Assembly: GCA_016191335.1 (NCBI GenBank)
Contig: JACPOW010000010.1
Location: 34,469-98,468 of the forward strand
DNA: 64,000 nucleotides
Direction: 5' to 3'
From: Elusimicrobiota bacterium
GTDB taxonomy: Bacteria > Elusimicrobiota > Elusimicrobia > UBA1565 > UBA9628
The notes below the pieces were generated by a model, which saw only the letters and a program-made list of their open reading frames with translations, was not told the origin of the DNA and made no database searches. Each line of letters begins with the position of its first letter. Within the stretch, counting starts at the first letter, position 1. This document shows positions 25,561 to 32,082 of the stretch, one piece after another. The position numbers and the translations under genes are program-made.

Positions 25561-26862
25561 TTATGATCGTCCCGCTGTCTTGAGGTCCACCCAGAACCGG
25601 CTGCCCCGCCCGGGCGAGGAGTCCACGCCGCAGGACCCGCCCATGCGCTCCGCCGCGCGGCGCACGATGGCCAGGCCGATGCCGGTGCCGGGATACTCGT
25701 CCTCCGTGTGCAGGCGCTGGAACACCTCGAAGATCCGGCTCTGGTAGACCGGGGCCACGCCGATGCCGTCGTCCTCCACGATGAAGCGCACCCAGCCCTC
25801 GCGCGGCTCGGCGCGCACGCGGACCCAGGGCGGCACGCCCGCGGGCGTGAACTTCAGGGCGTTGGAGACGAGGTTGGAGAAGATCAAGGACAGCGGCCCG
25901 GGGTCGCCCATCACGACGGGCAGGGACGGCGCCACGTCGACGTGGGCCTTCGTCGCGCGGATGAGCGGGCCGAGCTCGGCGACCACCTGGGCGAGGACCG
26001 GCGAGGGGGCGACCGGGACCGGCGTTATCTCGTCGAGGGTCAGGCGGCTGAACTGGAGGAGGTCGGCGATGAGGTGGTCCATGCGCAGGGCGGCGGCCAT
26101 GATGCGGCCGGCGAAGCGCTTCGACTCGGGGTCGACGCGCTCCACGACGAACTCCGTGTAGCCGTGGATGTGGCGCAGGGGCGCGCGCAGGTCGTGGGCG
26201 ATCGAGTAGGCGAAGGAGTGGAGGTCCTTGACCGTCTGCTCGAGGCGGCAGGTGCGCTCGGCGACGAGGCGCTCCAGGTTCTCGCTGATGGCGCGCGCCT
26301 CCCTCTCGGAGTGCTCGGCGTGGCGGCGCAGGAGGCGCTCCCGGCGGCGGCCGTAGAAGCGGTCGAGGGCGACGGCGACCTGGTTGGCGGCGGTCTCGAG
26401 GAAGGCCCGGTCCTCGCCGTCGAAGGCGGCGGCGGCCTCGAGTTGGAGCACGCCGAAGGCCTGCTGGCCGCGAAGGGAGAGGGGGATGACGAAGGGCTCG
26501 ACGGGGGCTCCCGCCGCGACCGCCGGGCCGGGAAGGGGAGCGCGGTGACGCTCGAGGCCCGCCGTGGGCAGGCCGGTGACGCGCTCGAAGGCGGAGACGG
26601 CGCCGCGCTCGAGGGCGGCGAGGCGCTCGGGAAGGTCCGCCGCGGAGCGCCAGGCGAACAGGCGCGTGCGCGAGTCGCGGCTCTCGACCAGGACGGCGCT
26701 GCGCAGGGGGACGACCTCGGCGATGACGGCCAGCACGGCGGAGACCGTCGTCTCCACGCCCGTGATCGGGGACAGCAGCACCCACCCGATCTCGTACAGC
26801 GATTCGAGCCGCCGCGAGGCGGGCGGGAAGGTGCGCAGCGGAGGCTTGGCGTGCAGGGTCAC
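25561..26862 (-). CDS. Sensor histidine kinase with N-terminal GAF domain (cytoplasmic; no TM helices seen)
   Basis: GAF-like LESLYEIGWVLLSPI.... HisKA FAYSIAHDLRAPLRHIHGY. HATPase_c IFSNLVSNALKFTP...IVEDDGIGV...GTGIGLAIVRRAAERMGG. Start set at GTG 26862; the track start at 27015 would read through the tRNA-derived repeat and is rejected. Confidence 0.75.
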   Translation of the reverse strand: MTLHAKPPLRTFPPASRRLESLYEIGWVLLSPITGVETTVSAVLAVIAEVVPLRSAVLVESRDSRTRLFAWRSAADLPERLAALERGAVSAFERVTGLPTAGLERHRAPLPGPAVAAGAPVEPFVIPLSLRGQQAFGVLQLEAAAAFDGEDRAFLETAANQVAVALDRFYGRRRERLLRRHAEHSEREARAISENLERLVAERTCRLEQTVKDLHSFAYSIAHDLRAPLRHIHGYTEFVVERVDPESKRFAGRIMAAALRMDHLIADLLQFSRLTLDEITPVPVAPSPVLAQVVAELGPLIRATKAHVDVAPSLPVVMGDPGPLSLIFSNLVSNALKFTPAGVPPWVRVRAEPREGWVRFIVEDDGIGVAPVYQSRIFEVFQRLHTEDEYPGTGIGLAIVRRAAERMGGSCGVDSSPGRGSRFWVDLKTAGRS

Positions 26863-26962
26863 GGAAGGATTGTAGGATGGCCCGCGCCGGGATGGTGCTG
26901 TGGAGGTGTAAACATAAAGCGACGGTTGGCCGCATGTGCTAGAATCTTGCGTCGGGAACCCC

Positions 26963-27006
26963 TTTCTGGAGAGGTGGGTGAGCGGCTGAAACCGACGGTT
27001 TGCTAA
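26963..27006 (+). repeat. Left copy of a 44-bp direct repeat: 5 nt of upstream sequence plus the first 39 nt (to the anticodon loop) of tRNA-Ser(GCT). Putative att site of an integrated island.
   Basis: TTTCTGGAGAGGTGGGTGAGCGGCTGAAACCGACGGTTTGCTAA is identical at 26963-27006 and 30651-30694. The left copy diverges immediately after GCTAA. Confidence 0.6.
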
Positions 27007-27143
27007 TCCTAACACGCCTTTTTCGTCCCTCCGCAGTTCCGCTGCGTCCTACCGAGTGGAAATCAGTTTCTCGACGAGAAATCCCCCGATTTCTTAGCCG
27101 CCACCTTTTGCGAAGCGTTGCCGGGCTTTACCCGGTTTTGCCG

Positions 27144-27167
27144 AAAAGTGGTCACTTTTCTGGTCAC
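27144..27167. repeat. AAAAG-TGGTCAC-N5-TGGTCAC motif (two TGGTCAC boxes 12 bp apart) about 140 bp inside the left island end, just upstream of the TA promoter. A second copy sits at 30446-30464 near the right end.
   Basis: Left: AAAAGTGGTCACTTTTCTGGTCAC. Right: TGGTCACAAAAGTGGTCACTTT. Same orientation and spacing. Confidence 0.5.
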
Positions 27168-27193
27168 TTCTTTGAACTCCGAATCGCTCGACC

Positions 27194-27222
27194 TTGACAG
27201 TCGGCGTTATTACTATTATAAT
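27194..27222 (+). promoter_or_regulatory. Consensus sigma70 promoter TTGACA-N17-TATAAT driving the AbrB-type antitoxin and Doc toxin; SD GGAGG at 27236-27240
   Basis: TTGACA 27194-27199, 17-nt spacer, TATAAT 27217-27222, GGAGG, then ATG 27246. Confidence 0.5.
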
Positions 27223-27245
27223 AACACAGTACTAACGGAGGTCGT

Positions 27246-27473
27246 ATGTTCAAATTCCTTACCAAGGTTGGGAACAGCGAGGCGGTCGTCATCGACAAGG
27301 CCATTCTTTCGCTTCTCAAGATCACGAAGAACACCCCTTTGGAGATCACTACCGATGGGAAGAATCTCGTCATCTCGCCGGTCTCCGATCCCAAGAAAGC
27401 CCAAGAAGTGAAGAAGGCCTTCCAGTCCGTCAAGAAACGGTTTGGGCGCGCGTTAAAGAATCTGGCGAGTTAA
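27246..27473 (+). CDS. AbrB/MazE/SpoVT-fold antitoxin (cognate to Doc)
   Basis: 75 aa. MFKFLTKVGNSEAVVIDKAILSLLKITKNTPLEITTDGKNLVISPV is a swapped-hairpin AbrB-like fold. Stop TAA sits immediately before the Doc GTG start. Confidence 0.65.
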   Translation: MFKFLTKVGNSEAVVIDKAILSLLKITKNTPLEITTDGKNLVISPVSDPKKAQEVKKAFQSVKKRFGRALKNLAS

Positions 27474-27872
27474 GTGTCGCCGAGATTTTTGACGCTCTCC
27501 GAAATCCTCGGATTCCACGAAGAACTGATTCGTGATTTTGGGGGAAGTCCCGGCATCCGGGACCTGGGCCTGGCGGAATCAGCTGTCGCCATGCCTCAGG
27601 CCGGGGCAGGGGGCGAATTCTTTCATGTGTTCCCTTTTGAGATGGCGGCAGCCTACGCCTACCACATCGCCCAGAATCATCCGTTCGTGGATGGGAACAA
27701 ACGGACGGCGTTCGCGTCCGCCCTAACGTTTCTGGAGCTCAACGGATATCTAGTCATGGGAGGAGAGGACGCCCTGGAGGCTGCGACACGAAAAATCGCC
27801 TCCGGGAAACTCGACAAGAAGGGGTTCGCCGTACTCCTCGAAAAAACCTACAACGATCACAAGGGGACCTGA
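27474..27872 (+). CDS. doc: Doc (death-on-curing) / Fic-fold toxin
   Basis: GTG start. Fic/Doc motif HPFVDGNKRTAFASALTFLELNG (HxFx(D/N)GNKR). Confidence 0.85.
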   Translation: MSPRFLTLSEILGFHEELIRDFGGSPGIRDLGLAESAVAMPQAGAGGEFFHVFPFEMAAAYAYHIAQNHPFVDGNKRTAFASALTFLELNGYLVMGGEDALEAATRKIASGKLDKKGFAVLLEKTYNDHKGT

Positions 27873-27881
27873 AATTTTAAT

Positions 27882-28193
27882 GTGCCTGATAACCCCAAAG
27901 CAACAGACGGGGCCGACCAATCCCCGCCCGAACGCCTCTCCAAAAAAGAGTTCGCGAAGAAGATGCGTCGCGAAGCTTATTTGCGGATCAAGGAATTCCG
28001 CACGACTGATCCCCGTCAGATTGCCAGGATAGAAAATCCAAAGCAGAAAGACGCGATGCCTATCAGAAGTCCAAAGAGCGATGGGAGGCCGCACAGGCTG
28101 AACGCAAACGCACGCCGTAAACTTATCGAGGGAATACAGTGCGACAGGCTTTTCGGCATCGACTGGAATCTGCGTGTAGCGGCAAAGTGGTGA
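27882..28193 (+). CDS. Hypothetical small protein within the island
   Basis: 103-aa ORF, lower GC, no recognisable motifs. Confidence 0.3.
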   Translation: MPDNPKATDGADQSPPERLSKKEFAKKMRREAYLRIKEFRTTDPRQIARIENPKQKDAMPIRSPKSDGRPHRLNANARRKLIEGIQCDRLFGIDWNLRVAAKW

Positions 28194-28370
28194 CCGTTTG
28201 GCGAGAGGTAGTCGAGCTTCATCCAGTTGCTGAACGCGGGACTTGAATCTTAGAATCCAGCTCGCCAACGGGGCATCTGCAATAGCTACAACGGGTTAAT
28301 TGCAATGATTCTGGCGGGCTGTTTGCACCGCCAGACTCTGCACGTCACATCTGCATGTCTTCACGCCTCC

Positions 28371-30102
28371 TTATTTGAGGACCAGATTGGAAAGGCCGTT
28401 TTTCTCGAAGGCCTCGGCGTAGCGTTCCTCGTGAGCCCGCAGGTTCTTGAAGTATTCTTCGAGGGACATCTTCGAGACGGCTTCGCGGCCGAATTGACGC
28501 TCAAGGTCGCGCGCCGATAAGCGGGACTCGAGCTTCTCCCAGAAATTCTCCTCGTCATATTCCTCGATATGCGGCTCCAGGACCGGCTCCATGTCTTTCT
28601 CCACGTAGGCTTCCAGTCCCGCATCCTTGGCGCGCGAATACACGAGTTCGCTCACATCCCGATACTCCTTGACGATGTCCGCGGGGTCGCGCAGGGAGTT
28701 GGCCAGCCAGTCGCCCATGTAAACGAGATTGACGAGAGCTTTGTATTGCTTCGGGGTCAAGGCGATTTCCATGATTTTCTCCGCGGCCGGGCCGGCCGGC
28801 TCTCCTCGAAATAATTCGGCGCGCAATCTCGCGATCCCGTAGACCGGACGGCCGTCCCGGCTTTGCCGCTCCTCGCTGTTCTCGAAGTCCTTGAGCAGTT
28901 CGTCCAAGAGAGGCCGCGTGGCGGGATCGGCGACGGCTTGACGCGGGGTCAGGCCTCTCAAGGCCGGCACGGGCAGGTCCGGCCAGCGGCGGTAATGCTC
29001 GTCCAGGTGTTTGCCGATGATTTGAGCCTCGAGCTCCTTGGGAAGAACATCTTTTTCCGGCCCCTCCGTCTTCGCGACCGGCGCCTTCAAAGGGGTTCGT
29101 CGGGAGATTTTGAGGCGGACCAAGGAGCCCAGGCGCTCCTCCAGAAGCGCCGTCAAGGCGTCCATCCTTTCTTGGGACAGGCAAAAAGAAAAAAGCTCGG
29201 TCGAGGTGAGGGTCAGAGTGCCCCGGATGCTGACGCCGGCGCCGGCGTCCCGCGGCGCCGGCCCATCGTGGAGCCAGTTGAACACGAGCCCGCCCGGCTT
29301 GTCGTTGGATTCTCCCGCCTTTGAGAAGTCGGCCATGTCCTCCAGGCGGCGCCGAACCTCCGCGCCATCCGTCACGTCGAACACAGCGTCGGTGGGGGTG
29401 ACCAACTCCCGTGTCGAGGTGACCACGACCGGGCCGGGCTGTCGGGCGACCATCTCCTCGATAAAACAGTTGAGGTCGGCACCGGCAGCCTTCAAGTAGT
29501 CCGGCGCCGCGGCCTCCGGCTGACTTTCCCGCATCTCCGCGAGGCCGTCTCGGACGTAAGCGAGGATCTCGTCCTTGGCGCTTCGCGAGATGCCTATAAA
29601 TCATGTCCCAGGTGTGAAGCTGGCGGGAGGCGTTTTTACTGTTGACGGCGTACTCCTCACCGGTCACCAGGTCCTTCAAGCGCAAGGCGGCGCCGGGGTC
29701 GACGGCCGAGACTTCGAAGAAGGACTTCCAATTCTTCAGCCAACCGGTCAGAAGAGCGAGTTCTTCGGCGGGCAGGGACCGGCCGCGGGCGTCGAGGAAT
29801 AGATCGAGCAGAAAACGGCCTGAGGGCGGAAAGGGGAAATCATGGACGAAGTAGTCCATGAAATCCAAGAAGCGGCCATCCTTTTCCTCCGGCGCCCCCG
29901 CGATATTGGTTCCCCACCGCTCCTGCGCCTGAGCGATATATTTATGATTATGGTCGAGCGCCTGGACGAAATTCATGATTTTTCGCCGCAGGGACCCATC
30001 GACGTCGGGCAGCGCGCCCGAGGCTGACTCGGGGGGCAGGCAGCATTTTTTGTGTTTCCGGCCGCTCCCGCACGGGCAGGGAGCGTTGCGGGCGATGTCC
30101 AT
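28371..30102 (-). pseudogene. SEC-C motif domain protein disrupted by a single-nt frameshift near 29560-29580 (two overlapping ORFs, 28371..29534 and 28555..30102, each sensible only in part)
   Basis: N-terminus MDIARNAPCPCGSGRKHKKCC is a SEC-C metal-binding motif. The protein-like frame switches around ...WDMIYRHLAKRQ / ...SRSAKDEILAYVRDGLAEMRESQ. Removing one nt in GCGAAGCGCC would give continuous ...HLAKAKDEILAYV.... Confidence 0.5.
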
Positions 30103-30445
30103 AGGGCTATTTTAGCTCAATTCCGGCTACGTCAGTCGTCGCGTCGCCGGGCCGCGGCTGATTTTACCGACTCGGACGCGGGACGCAGGTGTTGAGCAGG
30201 CGGCGGGCGAGTTCGGCAGCACGCACCGGTTCACTCTTTCAACTCAGTTTTGATATCGACGAGACCTTGCTCATCGACCGCGTAGCGGTATCCACACGCC
30301 AACTCGCCGCGCGTCCCCGCCGGCCCGCATCAAGCTGCGAAGCTTTCAAAAGAAGAGCTGGCCGCGCTCTTGAGCGAACTGCCGGACAGTAATACCTTCA
30401 TATACAAACTTCTATAGGCAATTCTGTCCGCGTTCAATCTAGAAC

Positions 30446-30464
30446 TGGTCACAAAAGTGGTCAC
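30446..30464. repeat. Right-end copy of the paired TGGTCAC motif (TGGTCACAAAAGTGGTCAC), about 190 bp inside the right island boundary
   Basis: Same 12-bp box spacing and orientation as 27149-27167; shared AAAAGTGGTCACTTT core. Confidence 0.5.
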
Positions 30465-30655
30465 TTTGACCTGAAACCCCTTTTGCGATTTTTCGATGAA
30501 AATCAGAAATCGCCTTGGGCTGCAGCATATATTTTCTTTAGGGAACCGCAAAAGCCAACGGTTTAGCGAACCGTCCATCCGTCGAGAAATCGCAATCGCC
30601 TCGCTTTTCGGCCGGAAAAAAGTTACGATGTCGAAAGCAGTTTTTTCCAATTTCT

Positions 30656-30745
30656 GGAGAGGTGGGTGAGCGGCTGAAACCGACGGTTTGCTAAACCGTT
30701 GTACGGCGTAAAGCTGTACCGAGGGTTCGAATCCCTCCCTCTCCG
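30656..30745 (+). tRNA. tRNA-Ser (anticodon GCT), type II with long variable arm; 3-prime CCA not encoded
   Basis: Acceptor GGAGAGG/CCTCTCC with discriminator G. 3-bp D-stem. Anticodon stem ACGGT/ACCGT with loop TTGCTAA. Variable arm GTAC...GTAC. T-arm GAGGG-TTCGAAT-CCCTC. Confidence 0.9.
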
Positions 30746-30827
30746 TGCCTTTTTTAATAGACGTTAAGGATGCACGGGTCTTAGCGCAGCTGGCGGGGAC
30801 TCGTGCCGACTCCGAGTCCTTACATGA

Positions 30828-30866
30828 GGAGGCCGGGCCTCGGGAGAGGTCCGGCCTTCCTTTTTC
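30828..30866 (+). terminator. Rho-independent terminator (9-bp GC-rich stem, 14-nt loop, TTTTT) downstream of tRNA-Ser; overlaps the stop codon of the convergent minus-strand gene
   Basis: GGAGGCCGG...CCGGCCTTCC followed by TTTTT at 30861-30865. Confidence 0.45.
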
Positions 30867-32082
30867 AGAAGAGGAACATCGCCTTGACGCTGCCGCCGTC
30901 CCAGGCCTTGCCGGGCTTGTCGACGTCGAGGACGCCGCCCAAGGTGATCAGGCCGGCCGAGCCGAACTTGACCTCGAGGGAGGCGCCGAGCTTGGCCTCG
31001 CCCACGGACTCGTAGCGCTCGGAGGCGCCGCCGACCGGATGGCGGACCCGGTTCTCGCCCAGGGAGAAGGAGGGGGACAGCTCGCTCGTCAGGCGCGCGT
31101 TCAGGCTGCGGCGCCAGCGCAGGTAGGGCTGGATCTCCCAGCGCCGGTAGAGGGTCCCCGACGCCGGCATGCCAGGGATGTCGGTGCGCGCGGCGCGAAG
31201 AAGGAAGGCCGCGCCTGGCTCGAGCTCGTCGTCCGGCGACGGCCGCAGGCGCGCGGAGGCCGACGCCTCGTGCACCTTGCGACGGGCCTCCTCGGAGGTC
31301 CCCGTCCCGCCGGGAGCCACGGTGTTGATCTTCGCCTGCTCCTCATATGAGTAGCGCAATCTGGGGGCCCAGTTATCGTCCGAGCCGGCCTCGGCCCGGA
31401 CGCGCGTGCGGCGGTAGAAGAAGGAGCGCCTCTCGTCGGGCACCAGCCGCCGCGTCGCCTCGTCGAGGTCGCCGGAAAGCCGCAGGCTCCAAGCCCCGAG
31501 CGGCGCCTTGAAGGAGACCTCGTCCGTGTAGGGCTTCAGCGAGTAGCTCTGCGTGGTGCTGCCGCGCCCGTTGAGGTTCCAGTCCACGGCCGCCCGGCGC
31601 GCCCGCGCTTCCCAGCCCCCGCGCCGCCAGCGCACGCCGGCGCCGATGTCCGCGTCTTCCTTGCGATAAGTGGGCTCGCCGAACACTTCGGCCGACCAGC
31701 CCGCGCCCAGGTCGTGCTCGAATTCGATCCAGTGGTGTATCTCTTGCCGGTCTTTGTCGGAGAGCTCCACGAACCGGAATCGGAACTCAAGCTTGGGTGT
31801 CAGGCGTCGCGTGAACAAGAGGGTCTGGTCCAGGTAGAGGTCGCAGCAATCAAGGGACGCGCCGTTAACGCGGTAACCACCCGTGGACGCGGCCCACGCG
31901 TCATCCCACGCCCTCGACCAAGCGAAGCTGTTGAGGTCGAGAAAATACTCTGAGTCGAATAAAGGTTCCGTGTCGGTGCGATCCATCAGGGATCGTGTAA
32001 ATACCGCCTGACCCGGTATGGACATCAACATCAAAACGGCGGGAAATATAAACCGCTTCACGCCGTTATTATAGAATCTCAT
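30865..32082 (-). CDS. Hypothetical outer-membrane beta-barrel protein (signal peptide, amphipathic beta-strand pattern, C-terminal F)
   Basis: 405 aa. N-terminus KRFIFPAVLMLMSIPGQA. Alternating hydrophobic pattern throughout. C-terminus ...VKAMFLF is typical of OMPs. Confidence 0.45.
   Translation of the reverse strand: MRFYNNGVKRFIFPAVLMLMSIPGQAVFTRSLMDRTDTEPLFDSEYFLDLNSFAWSRAWDDAWAASTGGYRVNGASLDCCDLYLDQTLLFTRRLTPKLEFRFRFVELSDKDRQEIHHWIEFEHDLGAGWSAEVFGEPTYRKEDADIGAGVRWRRGGWEARARRAAVDWNLNGRGSTTQSYSLKPYTDEVSFKAPLGAWSLRLSGDLDEATRRLVPDERRSFFYRRTRVRAEAGSDDNWAPRLRYSYEEQAKINTVAPGGTGTSEEARRKVHEASASARLRPSPDDELEPGAAFLLRAARTDIPGMPASGTLYRRWEIQPYLRWRRSLNARLTSELSPSFSLGENRVRHPVGGASERYESVGEAKLGASLEVKFGSAGLITLGGVLDVDKPGKAWDGGSVKAMFLF

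Follow-up and report, generated by a model that had tools for sequence, protein, structure and literature searches.

The window analysed here is a stretch of 64 kb from an uncultured Elusimicrobiota bacterium (contig JACPOW010000010.1), in which a single transfer RNA (tRNA) gene, coding for tRNA-Ser(GCT), is preceded by an island of 3,644 nt (27007-30650) that carries a predicted toxin-antitoxin (TA) pair. The island lies between two copies of a 44-nt direct repeat, the right one being the beginning of the intact tRNA gene and the left one a truncated tRNA fragment. From comparison with related Elusimicrobiota contigs (loci L001-L037), the island is very probably an integrase-less member of an Elusimicrobiota family of tyrosine-recombinase elements that insert, with reverse polarity, in the anticodon loop of tRNA-Ser(GCT). 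The features on which this interpretation is built are the following:

26937 to 26945, forward strand: putative native tRNA-Ser promoter with a consensus extended -10 element (TGCTAGAAT), orphaned upstream of the 5' fragment
26963 to 27006, forward strand: left copy of the 44-nt repeat (core of the left attachment site, attL), consisting of a 5-nt leader and native tRNA nt 1-39; exact repeat
30616 to 30650, forward strand: putative element-borne promoter module (AAAAAAGTTACGAT) and leader, with the -10 hexamer TACGAT at 30624-30629
30651 to 30694, forward strand: right copy of the 44-nt repeat (core of the right attachment site, attR), consisting of a leader and tRNA nt 1-39 that would be element-derived; exact repeat
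30656 to 30745, forward strand: intact tRNA-Ser(GCT) with a long variable arm (ARAGORN; Rfam RF00005, 58.6 bits)

The direct repeat and the tRNA-Ser(GCT) gene

The window contains two exact copies of the repeat (TTTCTGGAGAGGTGGGTGAGCGGCTGAAACCGACGGTTTGCTAA), one at 26963-27006 and one at 30651-30694, and no further copy appeared when up to three mismatches were allowed, the expectation from shuffled sequences being zero; within the window it is not a dispersed, multi-copy repeat. If one mismatch was accepted, it grew to 47 nt. ARAGORN located the tRNA gene at 30655-30746 and Rfam located it at 30656-30745 and, based on this placement, the right copy corresponds to the 5-nt leader plus gene nt 1-39, up to the last base of the anticodon loop (positions -5 to +39). 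The left copy departs from the gene where the 3' strand of the anticodon stem begins, with T and not A as the first base, and it was recognised as a tRNA neither by ARAGORN nor by Rfam, in agreement with a preliminary description of this DNA in which the two copies had been reported as an intact gene and a fragment. That description had also taken the duplicated segment to be the 5' half of the gene together with 5 nt of upstream sequence. The span of the repeat was corroborated, whereas the idea that an exchanged segment reached upstream of the gene was not: the 5 nt (TTTCT) are a leader kept before most copies of the 5' half, native and element-borne alike, and as such are no evidence for it. 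The possibility of a terminator or structured RNA at the orphaned fragment was also considered, and it was dropped after the predicted fold of 26952-27045 turned out to be no more stable than those of shuffled sequences (z = +1.09).

The island located between the fragment and the intact gene differs from the host in base composition (57.4% G+C versus 68.5-69.1% in the flanks) and in gene content, its cargo being a MazE/Doc pair, a SEC-C gene and a hypothetical open reading frame (ORF). A low-GC segment of 3.6 kb with a TA pair, as previously proposed, is therefore what lies there. The same disposition, with the right repeat at the start of the intact gene and the inserted DNA between it and the fragment, was found in L005, L015, L027 and L031.

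Unoccupied and occupied sites in related Elusimicrobiota

The gene located just downstream of the tRNA (30865-32082) codes for a protein of 405 amino acids (aa), named OM405 here, that matched no Pfam family. In a genome collection, OM405 only found metagenome-assembled genomes of Elusimicrobiota. The tRNA gene adjoins the OM405 gene in L002-L005 and L011, and the 39-nt 5' half was identical in all of them. An unoccupied site was reached through OM405 homologues in L036/L037, which contain OM405, an intact tRNA gene, a flanking gene coding for a 127-aa protein and TonB/ExbD/ExbB genes, and no island. When window positions 26900-27006 were joined to 30695-30870, the resulting sequence was colinear with L036/L037 through the promoter and the tRNA. 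The empty site anticipated by the preliminary description was thus found, although not in the context it had foreseen, since the histidine kinase gene that flanks the island in the window is absent in L036, L014 and L002.

Occupied sites were collected by scanning metagenomes for copies of the 5' half in which the next base is not A, which yielded 17 contigs. All fragments in these contigs comprised the whole 39-nt 5' half, including 12 nt left unconstrained by the search pattern, and each had its own upstream promoter module; the right junction is set by the pattern in the 17 contigs and is independent only in L005. The simplest occupied site, L015, contains a fragment followed by only MazE/Doc (957 nt in all) and then GTTACGAT and the intact tRNA gene. 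L005 shows the arrangement of the window, with an identical 44-nt repeat and a MazE/Doc pair with 97% and 93% protein identity, the other cargo being different; it also carries an extra pair, MazE2/Doc2, to the left of the fragment. Tandem insertions were observed in L014/L018, in which the 127-aa flank gene is followed by 43 nt, a TGCTAGAAT-bearing first fragment, MazE/Doc, a GTTACGAT-bearing second fragment and a larger element. The remainder of the L014 contig (L031/L032) showed this larger element to be 9.4 kb long and to contain HicAB, GrpE, an Hsp70-like protein and others; it ends (L031) in a 356-aa tyrosine integrase, followed by GCTATGAT, the intact tRNA gene and the OM405 gene. Finally, L027 contains MazE2/Doc2 and a GTTACGAT-bearing fragment, followed by AbiEi/AbiEii, a 370-aa integrase (PF00589, 1.6e-32) and an intact tRNA gene preceded by GCTATGAT, which constitutes a complete element of 2.95 kb.

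In L003 a 455-aa tyrosine integrase is encoded on the same strand as the tRNA and ends 173 nt upstream of it (the far end of this insertion was unseen), and the integrases of L003, L027 and L031 all lie directly 5' of a 5' half and in the same direction, with PF00589 matches down to 1.6e-32. Matches to the C-terminal part of an integrase were also found just upstream of the fragments in L019 and L024. These proteins are generic Xer-like tyrosine recombinases that score under every NCBIfam equivalog cut-off. A scan of metagenomes with the L003 integrase protein confirmed no relatives. At these loci the site was seen empty, with a single insertion and with tandem insertions, the tyrosine integrases being located at the tRNA-proximal end of the elements. 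Upstream of the tRNA, L004 carries an island of 8.6 kb or more, coding for TIR, AAA_13 and DUF5677 proteins and with an integrase at its distal end; a 5' fragment was not found within this locus.

As separate observations on L004 (11357-20272), the TIR protein is of the CAP12/Pycsar type, an excisionase-like gene is also present at the far end, and the island abuts position +1 of the tRNA gene with neither a TTTCT leader nor a recognisable promoter module. In addition, L005 (6227-6850), L025 (719-1160) and L027 (4606-5297) each contain another MazE/Doc pair, diverged from that of the window (52-58% identical in aa) and placed directly upstream of a promoter-fragment unit; in L025 the match to Doc is split over two frames. 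This suggests that MazE/Doc pairs are a recurrent core cargo at the tRNA-proximal end of the elements.

Promoter modules upstream of the tRNA-Ser(GCT) gene

Three promoter modules were distinguished at these loci. The one with TGCTAGAAT, in the form TGTGCTAGAAT...CCCTTTCT, precedes the intact tRNA gene at the unoccupied site L036/L037 and also the leftmost fragments of L005, L014, L025 and L026; counting all distinct copies, TGCTAGAAT was found at five fragments and one intact gene, that of the empty site. The AAAAAAGTTACGAT module, for which GTTACGAT serves as the short label, was found before seven intact tRNA genes and two fragments of related loci, the latter displaced in the arrays L014 and L027, and is absent at the empty site; as the 40 nt that lead up to the intact tRNA gene (AAAAAAGTTACGAT...TTTCT), it is common to the window, L002, L003, L005 and L011. 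GCTATGAT was found at two intact genes, both adjoining an integrase, and at one fragment; in two different contigs it stands beside an integrase of the L027 type. What precedes the left fragment in the window and in L005 is TGCTAGAAT and not AAAAAAGTTACGAT.

Since the modules sit on displaced fragments and beside integrases, promoter and 5' half travel with the elements, and the arrays show the predicted promoter and 5'-half unit to belong to the element. From this distribution of modules, the promoter of the tRNA gene in the window is element-borne and the native one was left orphaned at 26937-26945. The activity of both promoters, including that of AAAAAAGTTACGAT in driving the intact tRNA gene, is predicted from their sequences. 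The element would accordingly supply the promoter and the 5' part of the gene, as had been suggested in the preliminary description, while the native promoter would stay with the fragment. From the empty site and the arrays, the intact tRNA gene appears to be a chimera, whose 5' part (30656-30694) comes from the element and whose 3' part (30695-30745) is native.

A related observation concerns L002 (11364-11880) and L034 (11311-11393), where GTTACGAT precedes the intact tRNA gene and there is neither a 5' fragment nor an island; L002 also contains a motif of the right arm described below. It seems that in these two loci the gene kept a foreign promoter for good after the rest of the element was lost.

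Attachment arms of the island

Both ends of the island contain repeated motifs, distributed in the following segments:

27007 to 27193, forward strand: left arm (P' arm, family 1), aligning with L005, L013, L014 (first fragment), L015, L023 and L025
30443 to 30466, forward strand: copies of the GGTCAC repeat in the right arm (P arm), CTGGTCAC-AAAA-GTGGTCAC; the same motif is found at the same distance (-198) in L005
30556 to 30591, forward strand: inverted mimic of the anticodon arm (30556-30575; 19/20 complementary to tRNA positions 30682-30701) followed by CCGTCGAGAAATC (30579-30591)

The P' arms could be aligned into three families, and the relatives of the window in family 1 carry different cargo or have different hosts. 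In the left arm lie TTTTCGTCC at 27025-27033, TTTCTCGACGAGAAA, which resembles a palindrome, at 27067-27081, and the directly repeated GTGGTCAC-TTTT-CTGGTCAC at 27146-27169; its motifs TGGTCACTT and TTCTCGACG reappear in the right arm. TTTCTCGACGAGAAA is placed at +61, with a half-site of it at -76, while direct repeats of GGTCAC occupy +140 to +163 and -213 to -190. Both arms of the window retain the motifs common to related islands, which are putative binding sites for the integrase or accessory proteins. The pattern of stem, variable loop and stem formed by the anticodon-arm mimic recurs at approximately -100 in the P arms of L005, L013, L014 (second fragment), L015, L022 and L027 (first fragment), and is less perfect in L011 and L020; in these other elements the halves of the stem are kept and the 7-nt loop varies. 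The mimic may be an additional site for the integrase.

Search for an integrase in the window

No integrase was detected in the island or elsewhere in the window by tblastn with the integrases of three related elements (L003, L004 and L027; E<=10), none by Pfam among the island ORFs scanned, and no integrase motif by eye in six-frame translations of 27000-27250, 27870-28380, 29480-29700 and 30100-30655. The excisionase-like protein of L004, used as a tblastn query at the same threshold, had no match inside the island. The earlier statement that no integrase remains was in this way borne out. An integrase of its own, a defining trait of autonomous integrative elements, was the one trait that the island lacked; the others tested were found, namely tRNA-borne direct repeats, an unoccupied site in relatives, and foreign composition and genes. 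Since L003, L027 and L031 encode an integrase at this same site, the copy in the window is a remnant or a satellite of the family and not an autonomous member.

Proposed insertion mechanism and alternative explanations

According to the insertion model that we favour, the attachment site of the element would consist of a promoter, a short leader and tRNA nt 1-39, placed between a right (P) and a left (P') arm. Recombination would most likely take place in the 7-nt anticodon loop (TTGCTAA), which forms the right edge of the block of identity, and the inverted repeat of the anticodon stem would provide the core binding sites. After integration, the native promoter and 5' half would be left behind as a dead fragment on the left (26937-27006), and on the right (30616-30745) the promoter and 5' half of the element would now precede the native 3' half, so that the tRNA gene would thereafter rely on transcription signals brought by the element. 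Re-use of the site would generate arrays, in which older promoter and 5'-half units are displaced leftward and all fragments end at the same position of the loop. The window copy would have lost its own integrase, or would never have had it.

Several observations weigh against this interpretation. Neither an integrase nor an excisionase was detected in the island or in the whole window, which leaves the activity of this copy unproven. The family-1 (GGTCAC) arms were tied to no integrase at any locus, and a free attachment site of the element (attP) or circular form was unseen, a scan of viral contigs with a 27-mer of the 5' half giving zero matches. The element-type promoters of L002 and L034, found without a left fragment, need the extra assumption of a later loss of attL. 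Synonymous divergence (dS) of MazE/Doc between hosts was 0.27-0.62, compared with 0.36-0.87 for host genes; the cassette is for this reason no very recent arrival, and it may be an old one that was passed on by vertical descent and is not mobile at present. Lastly, the placing of the crossover within the anticodon loop, the functions given to the arm motifs and the activity ascribed to the two promoters are deductions from sequence comparison.

In the most probable of the alternatives, the window copy and the 957-nt cassette of L015 would be integrase-less satellites still moved by an integrase that a related element supplies in trans. Both arms are complete, their motifs being kept across family-1 islands of differing cargo and hosts, the MazE/Doc cassette occurs in four contexts (the window, L005, L014 and L015), relatives bearing an integrase use the same site, and the left fragments of the window and L005 match the tRNA at 44 of 44 positions despite diverged non-coding DNA and a dS of about 0.4. 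However, the missing cognate integrase for family-1 arms and the unseen attP or excised form count against such satellites, the dS of MazE/Doc is near that of the host and compatible with vertical descent, addiction modules are expected to outlast a decaying element, and the SEC-C gene is frameshifted. On balance we regard continued mobilisation in trans as a minority possibility, with a real but limited share of our credence. Decay with survival of the addiction module fits both the missing integrase and the apparently broken SEC-C gene. The preliminary description had considered the element to be decayed or fixed, which is one reading only, since both arms keep the shared motifs and mobilisation in trans is possible.

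In the comparison of the two left fragments (26963-27006 in the window and 6098-6141 in L005), the 44/44 identity to the tRNA was accompanied by approximately 77% DNA identity of the flanking genes and by diverged DNA on either side of the fragments. This identity could result from independent insertions, gene conversion or selection on the attachment site. A broader and somewhat more speculative scenario, to which we would assign a slightly lower likelihood than to the satellites themselves, is that the 5' side of tRNA-Ser(GCT) is a cassette-accumulating locus: integrase-less mini-elements (957 nt, MazE/Doc between attachment arms) would be moved in trans by the integrases of larger relatives, each insertion would swap the tRNA promoter, the P-arm mimic would be an extra integrase site, and the dead 5' fragments would be perfectly conserved through continued use in recombination.

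A second alternative would place the island upstream of an untouched tRNA gene, for instance in its promoter region, with GTTACGAT and the intact tRNA native and the left TGCTAGAAT and 5'-half unit an island-borne relic. It was prompted by L002, L003 and L011: the GTTACGAT module (-40 to -1) is 77-89% identical before the intact tRNA genes of L002, L003, L011 and L034 and, as L002 and L034 have no flanking fragment, it looks native at first sight. This reading was rejected on the evidence of the arrays and the empty site. The unoccupied site has TGCTAGAAT before the intact gene, the TGCTAGAAT unit of L014/L018 begins 43 nt past the stop of the host flank gene, GTTACGAT units were displaced as fragments in L014 and L027, the DNA upstream of the tRNA in L002 contains the P-arm motif CCGACGAGAAATCC, and a site-specific insertion requires element DNA immediately to the left of the right repeat. 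We consider it highly improbable.

Weakest of all, and scarcely credible, is an origin without a mobile element, in which the 5' part of the tRNA gene was duplicated locally or recombined unequally and the DNA in between was gathered otherwise. It would agree with an island that has no integrase and a repeat that is short, but the window and L005 independently share the base at which the fragment stops, 5' fragments of any other length were found at no locus, the arms are homologous to those of integrase-bearing elements, in L027 and L031 this repeat also delimits complete elements with an integrase, and the base composition of the island is foreign.

Comparison with known systems

The preliminary description had called the polarity of this insertion the less common one, and the literature supports this: elements that recombine with a tRNA gene in its 5'-distal part have been reported, but this is "considerably less frequent" (PMC6563490). 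Such recombination was described in Caldiarchaeum subterraneum, with a tRNA-Ser as the target of the element CalSub-E1, and elements with tyrosine recombinases can re-use a site and form arrays (PMC6563490). The Elusimicrobiota elements are like those of C. subterraneum in their use of the 5'-distal part of a tRNA gene, and differ from them in that the latter have archaeal hosts and another promoter architecture.

Within bacteria, a reverse-orientation element of Mesorhizobium loti reportedly recombines with the 5' part of a tRNA-type gene; it is said to lie upstream of the restored gene and to have to supply its 5' part and transcription signals. Here the phylum, the target gene and the integrase are different, and a whole family is found at one site, with tandem arrays, several promoter modules and integrase-less TA mini-islands. 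Integration sites in tRNA genes are also said to fall into sublocation classes, the canonical tRNA islands and prophages including those with crossover in the anticodon loop. With such canonical islands the elements share a tyrosine integrase, tRNA-derived direct repeats, a junction in the anticodon loop, an integrase gene adjacent to the attachment site, an inverted repeat formed by the stem around a 7-nt overlap, and TA and defence cargo. Whereas a canonical island brings the 3' part of the tRNA with it, is found downstream of the gene and keeps its native promoter, here the polarity is inverted and the promoter replaced. The arrangement is therefore rare but known, and this is a new phylum for recombination with the 5' half of a tRNA gene.

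Replacement of the 5' half puts expression of a tRNA under promoter DNA of a mobile element, for which very few cases are documented. The loci form a natural series that runs from the empty site through the 1-kb cassette and elements of 3-9 kb to tandem arrays and that includes three or more interchangeable promoter modules. This series lets one ask how an integrase chooses polarity, what an element-borne tRNA promoter needs and how TA and defence genes build up beside a tRNA gene in a phylum that has been little studied. For annotation, island finders that only seek 3' fragments downstream of tRNA genes would miss islands of this kind.

Cargo of the island, flanking genes and minor observations

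The cargo of the island comprises the following features:

27194 to 27222, forward strand: putative promoter of the TA operon, of the sigma-70 type (TTGACA-17 nt-TATAAT; 12/12 consensus matches)
27246 to 27473, forward strand: antitoxin of the MazE/AbrB fold, partner of Doc, 75 aa (Pfam PF04014, 3.3e-06, above cut-off)
27474 to 27872, forward strand: Doc (death-on-curing) toxin of the Fic family, 132 aa, with the motif HPFVDGNKRTA (Pfam PF02661, 8.1e-18)
27882 to 28193, forward strand: hypothetical ORF, 103 aa, its counterpart in the L005 island being frameshifted (tblastn matches in three frames)
28371 to 30102, reverse strand: gene for a SEC-C-motif protein (PF02810, 2.2e-08, in the N-terminal part)

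The antitoxin also matched the NCBIfam model TIGR02609 (doc_partner) with 1.6e-07, below cut-off, and is 96-97% identical in aa to the copies of L005, L014 and L015. The toxin scored 58.5 bits against TIGR01550 (DOC_P1), the cut-off of which is 38.65. The stop of the antitoxin gene and the start of the toxin gene are adjacent (27473/27474) and a consensus promoter lies upstream, so that both genes can be classified as a predicted type II toxin-antitoxin system formed by a Doc toxin and its partner antitoxin. An inverted repeat (GTTATTA-N9-TAATAAC, 27209-27231), a plausible operator for autoregulation by the antitoxin, encloses the -10 element of this promoter. The pair resembles Phd/Doc of phage P1 in its Doc/Fic toxin with the HxFxDGNKR motif, a small antitoxin gene located first, a toxin start codon that comes right after the antitoxin stop, and a strong promoter; it differs in that the antitoxin is of the MazE/AbrB fold and not Phd, and in that both genes form the conserved core of the cargo in an island that integrates into a tRNA gene.

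The hypothetical ORF (27882-28193) had no match in Pfam or NCBIfam. In the SEC-C gene, the N- and C-terminal parts are in different frames and the switch takes place within ATGATTTATAGG (29590-29610); the gene is apparently broken by a 1-nt frameshift near 29600, either as a true pseudogene or through an assembly error. To the left of the orphaned promoter, 25561-26868 on the reverse strand codes for the histidine kinase, with GAF, HisKA and HATPase_c domains (Pfam).

Some further observations were made around the tRNA gene. On the reverse strand of its 3' half (30691-30745) there is a match to Rfam RF04351 (Plastid-psbl-rps4 3' UTR) with 60.6 bits, below the gathering threshold of 68; this model probably overlaps a plastid tRNA-Ser, and the match is no feature of the locus. 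The closest relatives of the window by OM405 protein, the Logan contigs L001, L029, L030 and L033, all end inside the T-arm of the tRNA and are for this reason uninformative on the site; assemblies of short-read unitigs break systematically at this point, and the islands are invisible in them. Finally, in L003 (11265-12560) and L005 (1235-2634) an insert of about 1.4 kb, coding for two apparently secreted proteins, separates the OM405 gene from the 3' end of the tRNA. This insert is absent in the window, L002 and L004, and its patchy presence indicates that the 3' side of the tRNA gene is variable too.

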